64,000 bases of DNA from Escherichia coli (GTDB lineage Bacteria > Pseudomonadota > Gammaproteobacteria > Enterobacterales > Enterobacteriaceae). The stretch lies in the NCBI RefSeq assembly GCF_003334405.1, contig NZ_QOWM01000004.1, one strand, 5' to 3'. The position numbers were made by a program, and so were the translations under genes. Positions 54,450-60,289 of the stretch are shown here, piece by piece (position 1 is the first letter of the stretch; each line of letters starts with the position of its first letter). The notes under the pieces were generated by a model, which made no database searches, had not been told where the DNA came from, and saw nothing but the letters and a program-made list of their open reading frames with translations.

Positions 54450-54526
<77 letters not shown>

Positions 54527-54571
54527 ACGCCCGGCGTGCAGCATAAAAATACAACAAACACATAACATAAA

Positions 54572-55669
<1,098 letters not shown>

Positions 55670-55675
55670 AAAAAA

Positions 55676-55697
55676 GCCCGTCCAGTGGCGGACGGGC
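55676..55697 (-). terminator. Intrinsic terminator for the minus-strand ybiJ transcript
   Basis: Hairpin GCCCGTCC-agtggcg-GACGGGC with an 8-nt A-run on the plus strand (T-run on the minus strand) immediately beyond it. Confidence 0.6.
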
Positions 55698-55774
55698 AAA
55701 CAAGGGTAACATAGGATCAATGAGGGTTAGAGCATATGCGTCTGTCGGCAAACAGACAGGGAAATACTTGTGCT

Positions 55775-55895
55775 GGACGTAGCGTAAACGCCTGATCCGT
55801 CCAACGGTTCGGATTTTGTAGGCCTGATAAGACGCGGTAGCGTCGCATCAGGCATCTGTTGCCGGATGCGGCGTAAACGCCTTATCCGTCCTACG
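55775..55895. repeat. REP/BIME cluster between hcxB and ybiJ
   Basis: GTAGGCCTGATAAGACGCGGTAGCGTCGCATCAGGCA and TGCCGGATGCGGCGTAAACGCCTTATCCGTCCTAC inverted REP units. Confidence 0.75.
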
Positions 55896-55897
55896 AA

Positions 55898-56158
55898 TTA
55901 CTTATAAATTACCGCAGTACCGCTTAATTTATTGTTGTTGGTGGCGGAAGTGATGCTGTATCCACTGGCACCGGCTGCCGCGGCTTTCTCAGCCAGTTTC
56001 GCTTCCAGGGCATCGAGGGTGGATGCGCCATCGGCAGAAACCACGCCGATTTTATTCATGTTCTGTGCCTGGGATGCCGTTACCGGTTCCGCCGCGAACA
56101 CGCCAAATGACAGAGTTGAAAGAGCCATAGCAGCAACAACAGTATTGATAGTTTTCAT
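55898..56158 (-). CDS. ybiJ: Small periplasmic DUF1471 (YhcN-family) protein
   Basis: 86-aa ORF; signal peptide (MKTINTVVAAMALSTLSFGVFA); C-terminal GTAVIYK motif shared with mcbA. Confidence 0.88.
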   Translation of the reverse strand: MKTINTVVAAMALSTLSFGVFAAEPVTASQAQNMNKIGVVSADGASTLDALEAKLAEKAAAAGASGYSITSATNNNKLSGTAVIYK

Positions 56159-56422
56159 AATTAATCTCTCGCAGGTGATTTTTGTATAAGTGACGTTGTT
56201 TCGTCGATGTGATGAGTATCACGTTTTTTTACGAGAGATAAAATCGAAGAGAATTGACCGCCTTGTTCAAATAAATTGATTGATATCTAACCTACTGATA
56301 AACCATTTATTTGTTGTACTTATGAACTTGTTTTATACCGCGTGGCAGTCACAGCAGCGTTAAAGGCACGGAATGACACGCAAAATACAAATTATACTCG
56401 CTATGCATCTCGCCAGTTGTAG

Positions 56423-56689
56423 TTAACGTAACTGGCTGTCTTTCGAACCTCTGCGATTATATCCTGTATAAGCTGGTTTTTGTAAATCTTTCTCCTGCTG
56501 ACAATGAATACATAAGCGCACGCCAGGAATGGCTTCCCGACGGGCCTGCGGGATGGGGGCACCGCACTCTTCACATTCATCCAGGCTTTCGCCGCGCGGA
56601 ATTTCACCCCGAGCGCGGGCAATCGCATCTTCAATTGTACTGTTGATCTGTTCGTTGACGGCGTCATCGTTAGCCCAACCGGATGCCAT
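56423..56689 (-). CDS. ybiI: DksA/TraR-type C4 zinc-finger protein
   Basis: 88-aa ORF; CxxC-N17-CxxC zinc finger (CEECGAPIP…CIHCQ) preceded by an acidic helical region. Confidence 0.88.
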   Translation of the reverse strand: MASGWANDDAVNEQINSTIEDAIARARGEIPRGESLDECEECGAPIPQARREAIPGVRLCIHCQQEKDLQKPAYTGYNRRGSKDSQLR

Positions 56690-56762
56690 ATCGACCTCCC
56701 CATATCAATACTTGTACAGTTAAGTGTAGCTAATCCAGGGACGAACTCGGGCAGTTCAAGCA

Positions 56763-57440
56763 TCAGATCTCCGACCATTCCCGCAGCAGATTATGATAAA
56801 GATTAAGCAGCGACAGGATCTCTTCACTTTCGCCGTAGCGGCTTTTCAGCGACTGAATATTGTTGTCCAGTTCAAACAGCATGGCGCGCTTTTTATCATC
56901 GCGGATCATCGACTGGATCCACATAAATGATGCCACTCGTACGCCGCGGGTTACGGGTGTCACGCAATGCAGGCTGCTGGAGGGATACAACACGAGATCG
57001 CCTGCCGGGAGTTTTACCCGATGTTGTCCGAAGGTGTCATTAACGACCAGTTCGCCGCCGTCGTAGCTTTGTGGATCGCTTAAAAACAGCGTGGCAGAAA
57101 GGTCAGTACGCATCCAGCCGTTTTGTGGATGGCTGCGTACTGCGCCATCCACATGGAAACCATAGGTTTCATTGTTCTGATAGCGATTAAACAGCGGCGT
57201 GGAAAGGGTACGCGGCAAGGCCGCGGCAAAGAATAAAGCATGTTGGTTAACCGCGTTCAGCACCTCATTTTGCAGGGCGGCGTATAACGTGCTGCGGGTG
57301 TCGACCTGTTGATTGTTCTTAACTTGCGCACCTTGTGCGCCGGTGGTGACGCGTCCATCCACCCATTCGGCTTGTTCCAGTTGTTCGCGAAAACGAGCGA
57401 CGTCCTGTGGCGATAACACGCCGGGAATGTGGTACATCAT
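56763..57440 (-). CDS. ybiX: PKHD-type Fe(II)/2-oxoglutarate-dependent hydroxylase
   Basis: 225 aa from the internal ATG pair (MMYHIPG); HxD…H iron-binding pattern (HVDG…H); 41 bp downstream of fiu on the same strand. Confidence 0.85.
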
Positions 57441-57481
57441 ACAATTTCTCCAAAAAGTGGGGCCTGCGCCCCACATCTGAA

Positions 57482-59764
57482 TCAGAAATGCATATTGGCT
57501 GTGAGCAAGAAGGTTCTTGGCTCGCCCGGGTGATAACGGTAGCCGCTCTTGTTGATTGAGGCGACGTAATCGGTATCAAACAGGTTGTAAACGTTTAGCT
57601 GGAAGTCGAGATTGCGATTAACTCGATACCCCAGTTTGGCATCGGCGACCCAGTAACCTTCGGTAAACGCTGGCGTTCCCACCGCGCCGTCTGAACCTTT
57701 ATGCATACTGCCGATATAGCGTGCGCCCGCGCCAACAGAGATATCGTCGGTTGCCTGATATTGGCTCCATAAGGTGAAGGCGTGCTCCGGGGTATACGGC
57801 AGCGATGAGGAACCATCCTGGGCAACATCTTTGCCGTTTTTGATGGTTGCTTTTTGCTGGGTATAGCCGCCAATCACCTGCCACGCGGGAGTGATATTCC
57901 CGGCCACGGATATCTCATAGCCTTCGACGCGTTTCTTACCGTATTGCGAGTAAGTTCCGTCATCATTTTGCTCAACTTCATTTTCGATATCAGTGCGGAA
58001 CAGCGCGGCGGTGAGCAACAGACGTTTATCCAGAACCTGCCATTTGGTGCCAATCTCGCTGGTGTTGGCTTTTTGCGGTTTAAAATCGGTGCGGTTGGCA
58101 CTGTTACCGCTGCCAGACTGCGCAAGGGCGAAGTTGTTGCCGCCCGGAGGCTGCTGGGAAACGGCATAGTTAATATAGACATTGCCGTTTTCCGTCAGGT
58201 GATACAGCGCCCCGGCTTTCCAGTTCATCAGATTGCCCGACTTGGCGGTGTCGACGGTGGTGACCGGAGAACCTTTTGCCACACCAGTTGGGCAGGTGAT
58301 GGCACCGCGTCCGCTGCCGCCGCAGGCGGTGGCACTGTCATATTCAGTATGATAATTATCCAGACGGATCCCGCCGTTCAGCTCAAAATCACGGGTGATT
58401 TGCAGCGTATCAAAGGCGTAAATTGCGAAGGTATCCGTCTGACCATTGGCGTTTGCGCCGTTGCGCGTCAGGCCGCCGGGATGAATGCTGCTGTCAGGAT
58501 GATAAATATTTACCGCGGGTAACGTCACCGGATTAACGCCGTAGTTAGTCTGCGTTTCACGGGTAAATTCCACGCCGGTACTGACATCATGACCGATAGA
58601 ACCGGTATAGAACGTCGAGGTCAGGTTGGTCTGGTTGGTGAGAATTTTATTACTCACATCTTTGGTATTCGCCGTGCGTGACCAGGTCCAGCTATTCACA
58701 TCGCTGGTGGGCTGAGTAATATTCGACGCCCCGCCCATAATCGCCGTCATCAGGTAATCCTGCTTTACGCGCGACCAACGGGTAGTATTGCGAATGGTGG
58801 TGTTATCGTTGATGTCGTGCTCAAAACGCATGGTGGCGGTGTCGGTGGTCGAATCGTCGTAATCGGAATCCGTGCCGTAAAAGTTATGAGTATCAACTTT
58901 TCCGGAATGATTCAGGGCCGCCGTTCCCGCAGATGGGGCAGAATAGCCCGGCAAACCGATGGTCGGAATGCCGCCGTCTGGCGTGTTGTGCTGGGTGACA
59001 TGCAGATAATTAAGATACAAACGATTCGCTGTACCAAGGCCAAAAGCGACAGAAGGGGCGACGCCGTAACGCTCATTTTTGACTTTGTCGCGTCCGGCAT
59101 CGTGCGTTTTTTCGCCCATTACATTCAGGCGCACCGCGGTGGTATCACCAATGACCTGATTGACGTCCAGCGTGCCGCGGCGGAACCAGGCGCTGCCAAT
59201 ACTGGCGGAGGCGTCAATGCCGGAATCATTGCGCGGCTGCTTGCTGATCATATTGATCGAGCCTGTCGGTGCGCTGCGCCCGTAGTCGGTGCCGGACGGC
59301 CCTTTAATCACTTCGACCTGCTCGGTATTGAAGGTGTCGCGCGAGACGCTGCCGATATCGCGAATGCCATCAATATAAATACTGTTAGAGGTATCGGCAC
59401 CACGCATATAAATGGCGTCGCCAGTGGTGGAGTTACCGTTCTCACCCGCAAAAAACGCACCCACGCCGGGGACGTTTTTGAGCGCGTCGGTAAGGTTGGT
59501 TGCGCCCTGATCTTTAATCACTTGTTCAGAAATTACCGTCATCGTGCGGGTAGTATCCGCTACCGGACGCGAGAATTTCGGATCGGCAGATTGTTGTGGC
59601 GCATAAAGCGAAGGCGTTGATGCTTCGACAACCAGCGTGTCATCCGCGTTAGTTTGCCCTTCGGCGGCGAGTGCCTGAGCCACAGGCGTGATGCCAATAC
59701 AAAGACCGGCAAAGAACGTGAGCGAATGAAATTGTCTGGCAGGGAAATTGCGATTGTTTTCCAT
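57482..59764 (-). CDS. fiu: TonB-dependent outer-membrane receptor for catecholate siderophores
   Basis: 760-aa ORF; signal peptide, plug domain, 22-strand beta-barrel ending in aromatic residue (…LLTANMHF). Confidence 0.95.
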
Positions 59765-59874
59765 TTTGCAGGTGACTTTTTCTTATATGTTGAAATTTTC
59801 ACTGCCACGAGAAAGCCTCTCTGCGGATGCGATGCCACTGTTAATCCCGTGATAGTGCTCGTGAAAGTGATAAT

Positions 59875-59893
59875 AATTTTGATAAGCATTATC
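59875..59893 (-). promoter_or_regulatory. Fur box in the fiu promoter
   Basis: AATTTTGATAAGCATTATC; the last 13 nt match the Fur consensus GATAATCATTATC with one mismatch; about 110-130 bp upstream of the fiu start. Confidence 0.6.
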
Positions 59894-60028
59894 ACTTGGA
59901 GCGATTTTCTATCACCCATTGCGCGAAAAAGAAATACATTTATTTACATTGAGTTCATATTTGATGTTTTTTGATTACAAAACAGACGAAAACTGCATCC
60001 AGAGGCGAATGCAGTTACGTTGGTGGGG

Positions 60029-60289
60029 TTATTTGTAGATGGTTGCAGTACCGAACATCTGGTCATTTCCGCCTGCGGAATTAATGACATAACCTTTCGC
60101 GCCTTGTTCGCGCGCTTTTTCTGCCAGTTTATCCTCCAGATCGCTTAGGTTTGATGCGCCAGTTGCCGAAACGGTACCGGCGGGCCGTAGCTGACCGCTG
60201 TCCAGGTTACTCATCGGTTGCGCGGCATAAGCCGTGAGAGAGATTCCGCTCAGGACGGTGGCAATCAGTAGTGTGAGGCACTTTTTCAT
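60029..60289 (-). CDS. mcbA: Small periplasmic DUF1471 (YhcN-family) protein McbA
   Basis: 86 aa from the internal ATG (MKKCLTLLIATVLSGISLTAYA signal peptide) with a GAGGATG RBS; C-terminal GTATIYK; paralogue of ybiJ. Confidence 0.85.
   Translation of the reverse strand: MKKCLTLLIATVLSGISLTAYAAQPMSNLDSGQLRPAGTVSATGASNLSDLEDKLAEKAREQGAKGYVINSAGGNDQMFGTATIYK

Follow-up and report, generated by a model that had tools for sequence, protein, structure and literature searches.

[quoted passage not shown] A preliminary description of the locus, made from the sequence alone, had proposed a stand-alone regulator of this kind, either metal-responsive or metal-sparing. Here we have followed up this proposal in the window, a 64,000-nucleotide stretch of E. 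coli DNA (contig NZ_QOWM01000004.1), and in the corresponding loci of other bacteria.

Identity and predicted fold of the gene product

The gene is ybiI, as the preliminary description had named it. Its product is 100% identical to PDB 2KGO, the solved NMR structure of YbiI, it scores 160.5 bits against the YbiI equivalog model NCBIfam NF008243 (PRK11019, cutoff 96) with coverage of residues 1-88 of 88, and residues 39-67 match Pfam PF01258 (zf-dskA_traR) with an E-value of 5.1e-12. A search of 5,426 complete E. coli genomes found ybiI annotated in all of them, and full-length orthologues (64-99% identity) are found in 80 species. Taken together, these matches show that the ORF is real and did not arise by chance; ybiI is an already known, annotated and structure-solved gene, and its identification here adds nothing new. 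Two ORFs overlapping it, at 56401-56778 (minus strand, 125 aa) and 56529-56723 (plus strand, 64 aa), were treated as shadow ORFs since the database matches come only from the 88-aa frame, which was the frame searched. A weak hairpin over the ybiI stop codon was rejected as an intrinsic terminator, having no T-run and a fold z-score of 0.18, no better than shuffled sequence. The features of the locus are collected in Table 1.

Table 1. Features of the ybiI locus, in window coordinates.
Feature	Position	Strand	Basis and remarks
ybiJ, DUF1471 stress protein	55898..56158	minus	NF007611, 173 bits; follows ybiI, same strand, in 53/53 Enterobacteriaceae-type loci
ybiI CDS, 88 aa plus stop	56423..56689	minus	ORF list; ATG start; b0803 in MG1655
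C-terminal tail, N78-RRGSKDSQL-R88	56426..56458	minus	Nearly invariant; predicted disordered
Short C-terminal helix, residues 61-70	56480..56509	minus	AlphaFold2; corresponds to start of TraR C-helix
C4 zinc ribbon C39-C63 (CEEC-N17-CIHC), including I46-P47-x-A-R50-R51	56501..56575	minus	Sequence
Predicted N-terminal helix, residues 9-28	56606..56665	minus	AlphaFold2; corresponds to TraR helix entering RNAP secondary channel
Tip motif G4-W5-A-N-D8-D-A10, family consensus GWxxDxA	56660..56680	minus	At position of TraR DxxDxA
Shine-Dalgarno GGGGAGG	56695..56701	minus	From sequence; 5 nt ahead of ybiI ATG
σS-type extended -10, GCTACACTTAA	56720..56730	minus	ybiX-ybiI spacer; ybiI's own promoter
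Degenerate σ32-like element, CTTGAAC-N13-CCCTGGAT	56733..56760	minus	Upstream alignments, motif statistics
ybiX, Fe2+/2-oxoglutarate PKHD-type hydroxylase	56763..57440	minus	NF003972, 519.8 bits; annotation
Terminator-like hairpin, GTGGGGCGCAGGCCCCAC then TTTTTGG	57450..57474	minus	Terminator scan; between fiu stop and ybiX start
fiu, TonB-dependent catecholate siderophore receptor	57482..59764	minus	ORF; annotation
Overlapping Fur boxes, GATAATGCTTATCAAAATTATTATC	59863..59899		Upstream of fiu; 13-15/19 to Fur consensus

The C4 finger read earlier in the 88-aa ORF is seen as C39-E-E-C42, 17 residues and C60-I-H-C63, and the acidic helical segment described ahead of it is borne out by a net acidic stretch (D8, D9, E13, E20, D21) that largely falls in the first helix of the AlphaFold2 model. 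This model (pLDDT 72) consists of helix 9-28, the ribbon and helix 61-70, with residues 1-8 non-helical and of low confidence. By sequence and predicted fold YbiI is TraR-like, a single helix at the N-terminus being followed by a C4 zinc ribbon and a short C-helix. Indeed, hhalign places residues 11-72 onto TraR 11-70 with 98.9% probability, the TraR chains of RNAP complexes are the next sequence matches after 2KGO (E 5e-10), and when the comparison of predicted structure with TraR suggested in the preliminary description was run, TraR chains were the best Foldseek matches besides YbiI itself: 6N57_M (TM 0.68, 3.3 Å over 70 columns) followed by 5W1S_M (2.3 Å over 62 columns), with TM scores of 0.67-0.68 for the two when normalised to TraR. 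The secondary-channel-factor architecture claimed for the protein thus holds in its TraR form, but not as a DksA paralogue. Membership of the DksA type was rejected for a protein of 88 residues with a single helix and no coiled coil, which scores 16-20 bits against DksA models with cutoffs of 105-289 (TIGR02420, 20.1 versus 115.5; NF008045, 16.4 versus 289). YbiI also falls below the TraR-family cutoffs, marginally for TIGR02419 (59.5 versus 59.7) and clearly for the equivalog NF010268 (45.4 versus 108).

Stress promoters and the iron-gene cassette

The CTAYRCT motif of the ybiI promoter recurs at -36 to -40 upstream of ybiI in Escherichia, Salmonella and Citrobacter loci, and a σS -10 of the KCTAYRCTTAA type is conserved there in 16/53 enterobacterial loci, where 0.004 per locus would be expected by chance. 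An RpoS SELEX peak of 19.6 lies in the same spacer, and expression of ybiI is rpoS-dependent, with support from EσS ChIP-seq, gel shift and KMnO4 footprinting (PMC4447067); an extended -10 together with rpoS-dependent expression makes ybiI a member of the σS regulon. The gene is induced on entry into stationary phase in O157 and by NaCl in Salmonella. The neighbouring σ32-like element of the window departs from the consensus CTTGAAA-N13/14-CCCCATNT by three mismatches in the -10, and the RpoH SELEX signal at K-12 ybiI is weak (3.1). Elsewhere the element reads CCCTATAT in other Escherichia and the consensus CCCCATAT in Enterobacter-like genera; 32 of the 53 enterobacterial loci, and Pseudomonas too, have a σ32 motif ahead of ybiI, and the 1.88 Mb of locus DNA contain 17 strict σ32 matches, every one of them upstream of a ybiI orthologue. 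The conserved regulation of ybiI is control by stress sigma factors, σS in Escherichia, Salmonella and Citrobacter or σ32 in Enterobacter-like genera and Pseudomonas.

As the preliminary description had noted, ybiI lies just downstream of fiu-ybiX on the same strand, 73 bp past the ybiX stop codon, and our terminator scan found no terminator between ybiX and ybiI. The Fur boxes upstream of fiu are among the best Fur matches in the 64-kb window and would be the source of Fur-dependent read-through transcription into ybiI. Expression data agree with such a link: fiu is a core Fur-regulon gene, ybiI shares the Fur-1 iModulon with fiu and ybiX, and ybiI is induced in iron-poor serum. A further Fur-box-like site (14/19) is present at 56789-56807 in the 3' end of ybiX, ~60 nt ahead of the ybiI -10. 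In E. coli, ybiI is transcribed from its own σS promoter, which lies in the ybiX-ybiI spacer, and would in addition be reached by read-through from fiu-ybiX when Fur repression is lifted. Many relatives, among them Enterobacter-like genera and Pseudomonas with PA4870, have a promoter of the σ32 heat-shock type.

The proximity to ybiX with no intervening terminator, the shared iModulon, the serum induction, the 14/19 site and a role in iron metabolism suggested by Blankschien et al. could all be taken to mean that YbiI is a metal-responsive or metal-sparing substitute for DksA tied to the Fur-regulated fiu-ybiX genes, by analogy with DksA2. We nevertheless give this explanation very little credence. 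The four zinc-binding cysteines (C39, C42, C60 and C63) are invariant in the 35 sequences of our YbiI-family alignment (A1, to whose columns all residue counts out of 35 refer), and YbiI therefore cannot spare zinc. A scan of 55800-60100 for Zur boxes gave a best match of 15/23, inside ybiX, and control by Zur was rejected. Replaced zinc ligands and Zur-box control, the marks of metal sparing of the DksA2 type, are both absent from YbiI, and the metal-sparing proposal fails on these grounds. Conservation of the locus also argues against a dedicated iron function, as fiu-ybiX is a 3.2-kb cassette that stands upstream of ybiI in 19/53 Enterobacteriaceae-type loci and in 0/28 others (Pseudomonas, Halomonadaceae, Morganella, Pantoea and others), so that the family as a whole does not conserve a link of ybiI to iron genes. 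E. albertii shows a clean loss of the cassette with ybiI and its promoter kept, the same is seen in C. werkmanii and C. youngae, loci without the cassette have σ32- or σS-type promoters, and pairs of a TonB receptor and an oxygenase are found elsewhere without ybiI. A place beside iron-uptake genes is a trait of a few lineages and gives no sign of a metal-sparing role, and what agrees with the metal-responsive proposal is the iron-responsive expression of E. coli ybiI.

The chromosomal order rlmF-(mcbA-fiu-ybiX)-ybiI-ybiJ-ybiB is found in 53 enterobacterial species. Clustering of neighbouring ORFs within 3.5 kb of ybiI in 26 loci outside the Enterobacteriaceae gave no functional partner. Besides numerous high-GC shadow ORFs, it returned only lineage-local neighbours, namely a permease of the DMT type and a transporter of the BCCT type in Halomonadaceae. 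An Rfam scan of 54500-60200 found nothing associated with ybiI, its only match being a naRNA4/REP element downstream of ybiJ.

Conserved residues and a proposed role at RNA polymerase

Within the ribbon, I46 and R50 are as invariant as the cysteines (35/35), followed by P47 (34/35) and R51 (32/35). These residues correspond to those with which TraR contacts RNAP (I44 to I46, P45 to P47, R48 to R50 and R49 to R51), R48 of TraR touching the rim helices and R49 touching β' Si3. At the tip, the family columns are G (32/35), W (31/35), D/E (34/35) and A (27/35), and any DxxDxA occurs in just 6 of 150 representatives, so the TraR motif proper is missing. Neither HMMER nor hhalign aligns residues 1-10 with TraR, their alignments beginning only at residue 11 or 12. 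The 34-residue spacing from W5 to C39 is, however, equal to that from D3 to C37 in TraR, and WxxDxA is the putative counterpart of DxxDxA, an assignment drawn from this spacing and from conservation rather than from structural superposition of the tip. Residues 61-70 vary across the family except for Q64 and D68. The best-conserved segment of YbiI is the tail, residues 78-88, for which TraR and DksA have no counterpart: it reads YNRRGSKDSQLR almost invariantly, with N78, S85 and Q86 invariant and R79, R80, S82, K83, D84 and L87 each in at least 33/35 sequences, and is modelled with a pLDDT of 53-62 and no secondary structure.

The genetic check proposed in the preliminary description, complementation of a dksA mutant by ybiI overexpression, had in fact already given a positive result in a 2009 report ('data not shown'; PMC2613031): YbiI at high level relieves the amino-acid auxotrophy of a dksA null, whereas that of a relA spoT (ppGpp0) strain is not relieved. 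We favour, with a probability of roughly 60%, a model in which YbiI is a chromosomal, stress-induced factor of the TraR type that alters initiation as DksA does, weakly and with a requirement for ppGpp. The model builds on points established here or in the literature, namely the identity of the gene, its fold class, conserved residues and promoter elements, expression dependent on σS, Fur and RpoH, and the multicopy rescue of a dksA null; from these we infer direct binding of YbiI to RNAP, its binding mode and an effect at native levels. YbiI would shift transcription initiation in the DksA-like direction, and we propose that its effect is weak and ppGpp-requiring because the tip is GWxxDxA instead of DxxDxA. 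DxxDxA is required for TraR function, a D3N or D6N substitution crippling lambda Orf73, and the conserved Trp in place of the first Asp therefore counts against the model, as do a rescue seen only at high expression, the non-helical and low-confidence residues 1-8 of the predicted structure, the short and variable counterpart of the TraR C-helix that binds β-Si1, a conserved tail that lies outside the TraR mechanism, and DksA/TraR homologues of intermediate length, some of which do not function like DksA.

The same changed tip would suit an inert competitor similar to Rnk or Gfh1, which fills the secondary channel under stress and excludes DksA, GreA or GreB with no reprogramming of initiation. 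Contacts to the rim helices are kept in YbiI and the catalytic-site tip is altered (W5 for the first Asp), TraR homologues with an imperfect DxxDxA show good RNAP binding and weak activity, and Rnk is a precedent for competition at the channel. The reported rescue of a dksA null would not be expected from a pure competitor, and the strong constraint on the D-x-A half and on G-W suggests an active tip; we consider such a competitor improbable.

The tail leads to another explanation, that the main partner of YbiI is not RNAP: the ribbon would be a scaffold, the invariant basic tail would be the functional element and bind some other conserved macromolecule (chaperone, protease, ribosome or nucleic acid, for example), and rescue of dksA would be a side effect of overexpression. 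It would account for a segment that is the most conserved in the protein and has no TraR or DksA equivalent, for the missing canonical DxxDxA and for the need for high expression in the rescue, and it is in keeping with the co-induction of PA4870 with RpoH-regulon chaperones and proteases and with the lack of DksA-like function in some other DksA/TraR homologues of intermediate length. We think it unlikely, since I-P-x-A-R-R is conserved as well as the cysteines, which is hard to explain without contact to the RNAP rim helices, the fold matches that of RNAP-bound TraR, and no conserved gene neighbour points to another partner.

Returning to the model of a TraR-type factor at RNAP, it would place in the host genome a stress-timed modulator of the stringent-response machinery, provided that YbiI acts on RNAP at native levels, and the tip and tail would then show how a minimal secondary-channel factor becomes ppGpp-dependent. 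What lends the protein its interest is that a TraR-like protein conserved from E. coli to Pseudomonas is wired to σS or σ32 promoters. A bolder and quite doubtful extension is that YbiI and PA4870 form a distinct, widely conserved gamma-proteobacterial class of minimal secondary-channel factors, switched on by heat-shock and general-stress sigma factors and, unlike TraR, requiring ppGpp. The Trp tip would contact the active-site region in a different way, and the basic tail NRRGSKDSQLR would supply ppGpp site-2-like or β-lobe contacts that in DksA are made by the coiled coil and C-helix; were this so, cells would gain a stress-specific tuning of the stringent response at RNAP.

Comparison with TraR, DksA, DksA2 and PA4870

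YbiI resembles TraR (F plasmid; lambda Orf73 and P2 Orf82; 5W1S, 6N57) in its small size and its succession of N-helix (residues 2-27 in TraR, PMC6970531), CxxC-N17-CxxC ribbon and C-helix, in the retention of I-P-x-A-R-R with the arginines that contact the rim helices and Si3, and in multicopy rescue of a dksA null. Unlike TraR, it is encoded at a conserved chromosomal locus and not on a plasmid or phage, has GWxxDxA for DxxDxA and an N-terminus two residues longer, and carries a 15-residue extension, ending in NRRGSKDSQLR, where TraR ends at residue 73. TraR is also independent of ppGpp, in contrast to the failure of YbiI to rescue the ppGpp0 strain.

With DksA (E. coli; 1TJL, 5VSW), itself a secondary-channel binder, YbiI shares the Pfam zinc-finger domain and, when overexpressed, a genetic substitution that apparently requires ppGpp. 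DksA differs in having 151 residues and a two-helix coiled coil that bears DxxDxA, as against 88 residues and a single helix; hhalign aligns the finger of YbiI alone (residues 33-69), and the Foldseek E-values are 0.03-0.1. DksA2 of P. aeruginosa (4IJJ) is comparable as a second DksA-family protein in its genome with expression linked to metal limitation. It is, however, Zur-regulated and zinc-free, with the coiled coil kept and no C4 finger, whereas YbiI has the invariant C4 finger and neither coiled coil nor Zur box, and the fold match between the two is weak (E 0.018, TM 0.25-0.36).

P. aeruginosa PA4870, an RpoH-regulon protein ('DnaK suppressor / C4 zinc finger') that is uncharacterised, is a true orthologue of 88 residues; it shares the GWxxDxA tip and the tail, which there reads NHRGSKDSQLR. 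Its surroundings differ from those of E. coli ybiI, PA4870 lying beside PA4871-4873 and the urease genes and both fiu and ybiX being absent from its vicinity, as does its promoter, which is of the σ32 type (CTTGCAA-N14-GCCCATAT) where K-12 has the σS -10. PA4870 is induced 13.9-fold by RpoH and ~8-fold by heat, and induction by stress sigma factors is common to both genes.

Identity and fold class of YbiI

The ORF is present as the preliminary description had it, with a C4 finger (C39-x-x-C42, N17, C60-x-x-C63) preceded by an acidic N-terminal segment, and lies 3′ of fiu-ybiX on the same strand. Its translation, MASGWANDDAVNEQINSTIEDAIARARGEIPRGESLDECEECGAPIPQARREAIPGVRLCIHCQQEKDLQKPAYTGYNRRGSKDSQLR, is 100% identical to PDB 2KGO, an NMR structure entitled 'uncharacterized protein ybiI', and every one of the 5,426 complete E. 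coli genomes in the search matched the surrounding interval (55800–59950) and has the gene annotated as ybiI (b0803 in MG1655). YbiI matches Pfam zf-dskA_traR (E 5e-12) and the dedicated NCBIfam equivalog NF008243 (160.5 bits, cutoff 96), falls marginally below the cutoff of the TraR subfamily model TIGR02419 (59.5 vs 59.7), and scores 45 against the TraR equivalog model (cutoff 108) and 16–20 bits against three DksA models (cutoffs 105–289).

After 2KGO, the best sequence hits among solved structures are TraR chains in RNAP complexes (5W1S_M, E 5.5e-10; 6N57_M, E 1.6e-9), whereas alignment with DksA is confined to the zinc finger (E 0.05). The profile of A1, an alignment of 35 YbiI family members, matches TraR with 98.9% probability over residues 11–72, and DksA over residues 33–69 only. 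An AlphaFold2 model built on A1 (mean pLDDT 72) contains helix 9–28, a zinc ribbon, helix 61–70 and an unstructured tail (71–88). Foldseek comparison of this model with the PDB returned 2KGO first, followed by 6N57_M (TM 0.68 normalised to TraR, 3.3 Å, 70 columns) and 5W1S_M (2.3 Å, 62 columns), with far weaker matches to DksA2 and DksA (E 0.02–0.1); an unrelated fold was not seen. Because TraR is matched by sequence, profile and Foldseek, and DksA weakly or in the finger alone, the predicted architecture of YbiI is of the TraR type and not that of DksA, so the DksA/TraR likeness first proposed holds for the TraR fold class but not for DksA.

Transcription and activity of ybiI in E. coli

The σS-type element in the ybiX-ybiI spacer (table) agrees at every position with the extended σS −10 consensus, KCTAYRCTTAA, and where the K-12-type window has CCCTGGAT in the decayed σ32-type element, other Escherichia carry CCCTATAT. 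Since a terminator-like hairpin lies between fiu and ybiX, the sequence suggests that co-transcription of fiu with ybiX-ybiI is attenuated rather than free, while a terminator scan of the ybiX-ybiI interval found no such site, making read-through from ybiX into ybiI plausible. No convincing terminator was found 3′ of ybiI.

A Fur-box-like site, GATTATGATAAAGATTAAG (14/19), lies at 56789–56807, some 60 nt 5′ of the ybiI −10 element and still inside ybiX, at its 3′ end. Across the 64-kb window just 8 start positions score at least this high, three of them in the overlapping boxes 5′ of fiu; the site may have arisen by chance in a coding region, or it could be a further Fur site acting on the ybiI promoter. 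Immediately 3′ of ybiJ, an Rfam naRNA4 match (CssrE, a REP-derived nucleoid-associated RNA; 78.4 bits) occupies 55821–55891 on the minus strand, an interval in which the MG1655 annotation has an sRNA, ZbiJ, and a small protein, YbiE.

Features of the ybiI region and of orthologue loci (L numbers are fetched orthologue loci in their own numbering)
Feature	Position	Strand	Remarks
ybiI CDS	56689 down to 56423	minus	ORF list; ATG start, 88 codons
Ribosome-binding site GGGGAGG	5 nt 5′ of ybiI ATG	minus	sequence
σS-type extended −10 element GCTACACTTAA	56720–56730		in the 73-bp ybiX-ybiI spacer
Decayed σ32-type element CTTGAAC-N13-CCCTGGAT	56733–56760		just 5′ of σS −10 element
ybiX	56763–57440	minus	ybiI 73 bp 3′
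Intrinsic-terminator-like hairpin GTGGGGCGCAGGCCCCAC, then TTTTTGG	57450–57474	minus	strong; 41-nt gap between fiu stop and ybiX start
fiu	57482–59764	as ybiI	
Overlapping Fur boxes GATAATGCTTATCAAAATTATTATC	59863–59899		5′ of fiu; 13–15/19 consensus matches
σ32 promoter of ybiI	about 5930–5960		about 60–72 nt 5′ of start; L007, L009–L013, L019, L023, L036, L038, L045, L047, L048, L052 and others
σ32 promoter of ybiI orthologue	4936–4964		L082

A BLAST search with TraR led Blankschien et al. (2009) to YbiI; they reported as 'data not shown' that, at high expression, it relieves the amino-acid auxotrophy of a dksA deletion mutant, though not that of a relA spoT strain, and speculated on a role in iron metabolism (PMC2613031). 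Three of the four checks proposed in the preliminary description have answers from the literature or the present analysis. The ybiI promoter was recovered by EσS ChIP-seq (Peano et al. 2015, PMC4447067), a study that also reports rpoS-dependent expression, a gel shift and a KMnO4 footprint. Genomic SELEX gave a signal of 19.6 for RpoS holoenzyme within the ybiX-ybiI spacer, where those for RpoH (3.1), RpoF and RpoE were weak. Published work further reports that ybiI is induced as O157:H7 enters stationary phase, by NaCl in Salmonella (along with dps and proX) and in serum, that fiu, ybiX and ybiI share the Fur-1 iModulon, and that a ybiI clone was recovered in a genome-wide ASKA overexpression screen for resistance to oxidising agents. 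In CFT073, the label 'hypothetical protein YbiI' is attached to c0940, whose neighbours have phage annotations (DNA adenine methylase, baseplate assembly); c0940 probably encodes a TraR homologue of a prophage and not the chromosomal YbiI, and expression data under that name should therefore not be pooled with those for ybiI.

Synteny and promoters of orthologues

Scanning one genome per species yielded 80 loci with full-length orthologues (64–99% identity) in Enterobacteriaceae, Morganella, Pantoea, Pseudomonas, Halomonadaceae and others. The order ybiI, ybiJ, ybiB is common to all 53 Enterobacteriaceae-type loci, sometimes with hcxB between the last two, while fiu and ybiX lie 5′ of ybiI in only 19; neither gene was near ybiI in any of 28 loci outside this group, where no other conserved neighbour emerged. 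The upstream flank in Enterobacter and Salmonella consists of rlmF and a mechanosensitive-channel gene (ybiO in E. coli), the same genes that stand beyond fiu and mcbA in the window. In E. albertii (L003, 5823–5911) homology breaks off at window position 59986 and is picked up again at 56779: fiu-ybiX is cleanly missing over 3.2 kb, and the terminal 17 nt of ybiX, the spacer promoter and ybiI remain. C. werkmanii and C. youngae ATCC 29220 (L020, L033) likewise lack fiu-ybiX between mcbA and ybiI, although no homology to the spacer was recovered there at about 73–80% identity. Together with its Fur-box promoter, fiu-ybiX (56780–59985) behaves as a 3.2-kb presence/absence cassette between mcbA and ybiI, and adjacency of ybiI to iron genes is, on these comparisons, lineage-specific and dispensable. 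The metal-responsive or metal-sparing role first proposed for YbiI divides: iron-responsive expression in E. coli is real, but a metal-sparing protein is contradicted by the invariant C4, by the non-conserved synteny and by the missing Zur box (none found in a consensus scan around the locus), and we regard it as highly improbable.

A near-consensus σ32 promoter precedes ybiI in 32 of 53 enterobacterial loci (e.g. CTTGACTGTACGTTTTTTGACCCCATAT at about −62), including 28 of the 34 without fiu-ybiX, and a σS-type −10 element, CTAYRCT, lies at −36 to −40 in 16 of 53. A strict search for CTTGA-N14-17-CCCCATNT on both strands of 1.88 Mb of locus DNA gave 17 matches, every one directly 5′ of a ybiI orthologue. 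Near-consensus promoters of the type CTTGAC-N14-CCCCATAT precede the orthologues of Enterobacter, Lelliottia, Leclercia, Silvania, some Citrobacter and Pseudomonas; Pseudomonas orthologues carry CTTGCAA-N14-GCCCATAT. The P. aeruginosa orthologue (88 aa, MASGWANDGAVQEQ...NHRGSKDSQLR) sits between a ureC-adjacent gene and a PEP-mutase and Hsp70 pair, a neighbourhood we take to be PA4868–PA4873 on the PAO1 map, making the orthologue PA4870. PA4870 is reported to rise 13.9-fold on RpoH induction and about 8-fold on heat shock. Given this induction and the recurrence of σ32 and σS elements 5′ of orthologues, stress-sigma control is a trait of the YbiI family, and Fur coupling an Escherichia and Citrobacter overlay.

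Just 5′ of the σ32 promoter in Enterobacter loci (L009, about 5890–5925, and equivalents), a conserved hairpin, CTGCATCTGCCC...GGATGCAG, precedes a T-rich run, consistent with a terminator that insulates ybiI, as its own transcription unit, in loci lacking fiu-ybiX. Six Halomonadaceae loci (L059, L061, L064, L071, L076, L077) have CTAGACT, CCAGACT or CTATACT about 40–55 nt 5′ of ybiI, reminiscent of σS or σ70 −10 elements with C at −13; no σ32 motif was found 5′ of ybiI there.

Contact residues, tip and tail

What is established for YbiI comprises its identity and fold class, the conservation of contact residues, its promoters, and the published work on its expression and multicopy genetics. 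Gene, structure, family, σS- and Fur-linked expression and DksA-like activity in multicopy had all been described before. Comparison adds fiu-ybiX as an optional cassette, a σ32 or σS promoter that accompanies ybiI across genera, and a distinctive GWxxDxA tip with an invariant tail; these points sharpen the question of native YbiI/PA4870 function without making the finding surprising. In the best-supported model, to which we assign a probability of roughly 0.6, YbiI would act in the RNAP secondary channel as a TraR-type factor encoded by the host and induced by stress, with attenuated or modified, ppGpp-dependent activity. That it acts purely as a competitor seems to us decidedly unlikely.

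For such a secondary-channel factor we infer RNAP binding and its mode. C39, C42, I46, R50, C60, C63, N78, S85 and Q86 are invariant in A1, and three RNAP-contact residues of TraR have conserved equivalents in the alignment: P45 (YbiI P47), needed for RNAP binding, R48 (R50), which contacts the β′ rim helices, and R49 (R51), which contacts β′ Si3 (PMC6970531). The final 11 residues, NRRGSKDSQLR, are almost invariant and predicted to be disordered; recruitment of a non-RNAP partner by this tail is conceivable, if rather unlikely.

YbiI differs from TraR itself at both ends. In place of the DxxDxA tip motif required for TraR/DksA function, the YbiI family has G4-W5-x-x-D8-x-A10 (W in 31/35, D/E in 34/35, A in 27/35). 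W5 precedes the first Cys by 34 residues, the distance that separates TraR D3 from its own first Cys; on this spacing YbiI retains the second Asp and the Ala of the motif and has Trp for the first Asp. YbiI has two extra N-terminal residues relative to TraR, in which S2 is already 4.3 Å from the catalytic Mg (PMC6970531), and TraR, whose chain stops at residue 73, lacks any equivalent of the YbiI tail.
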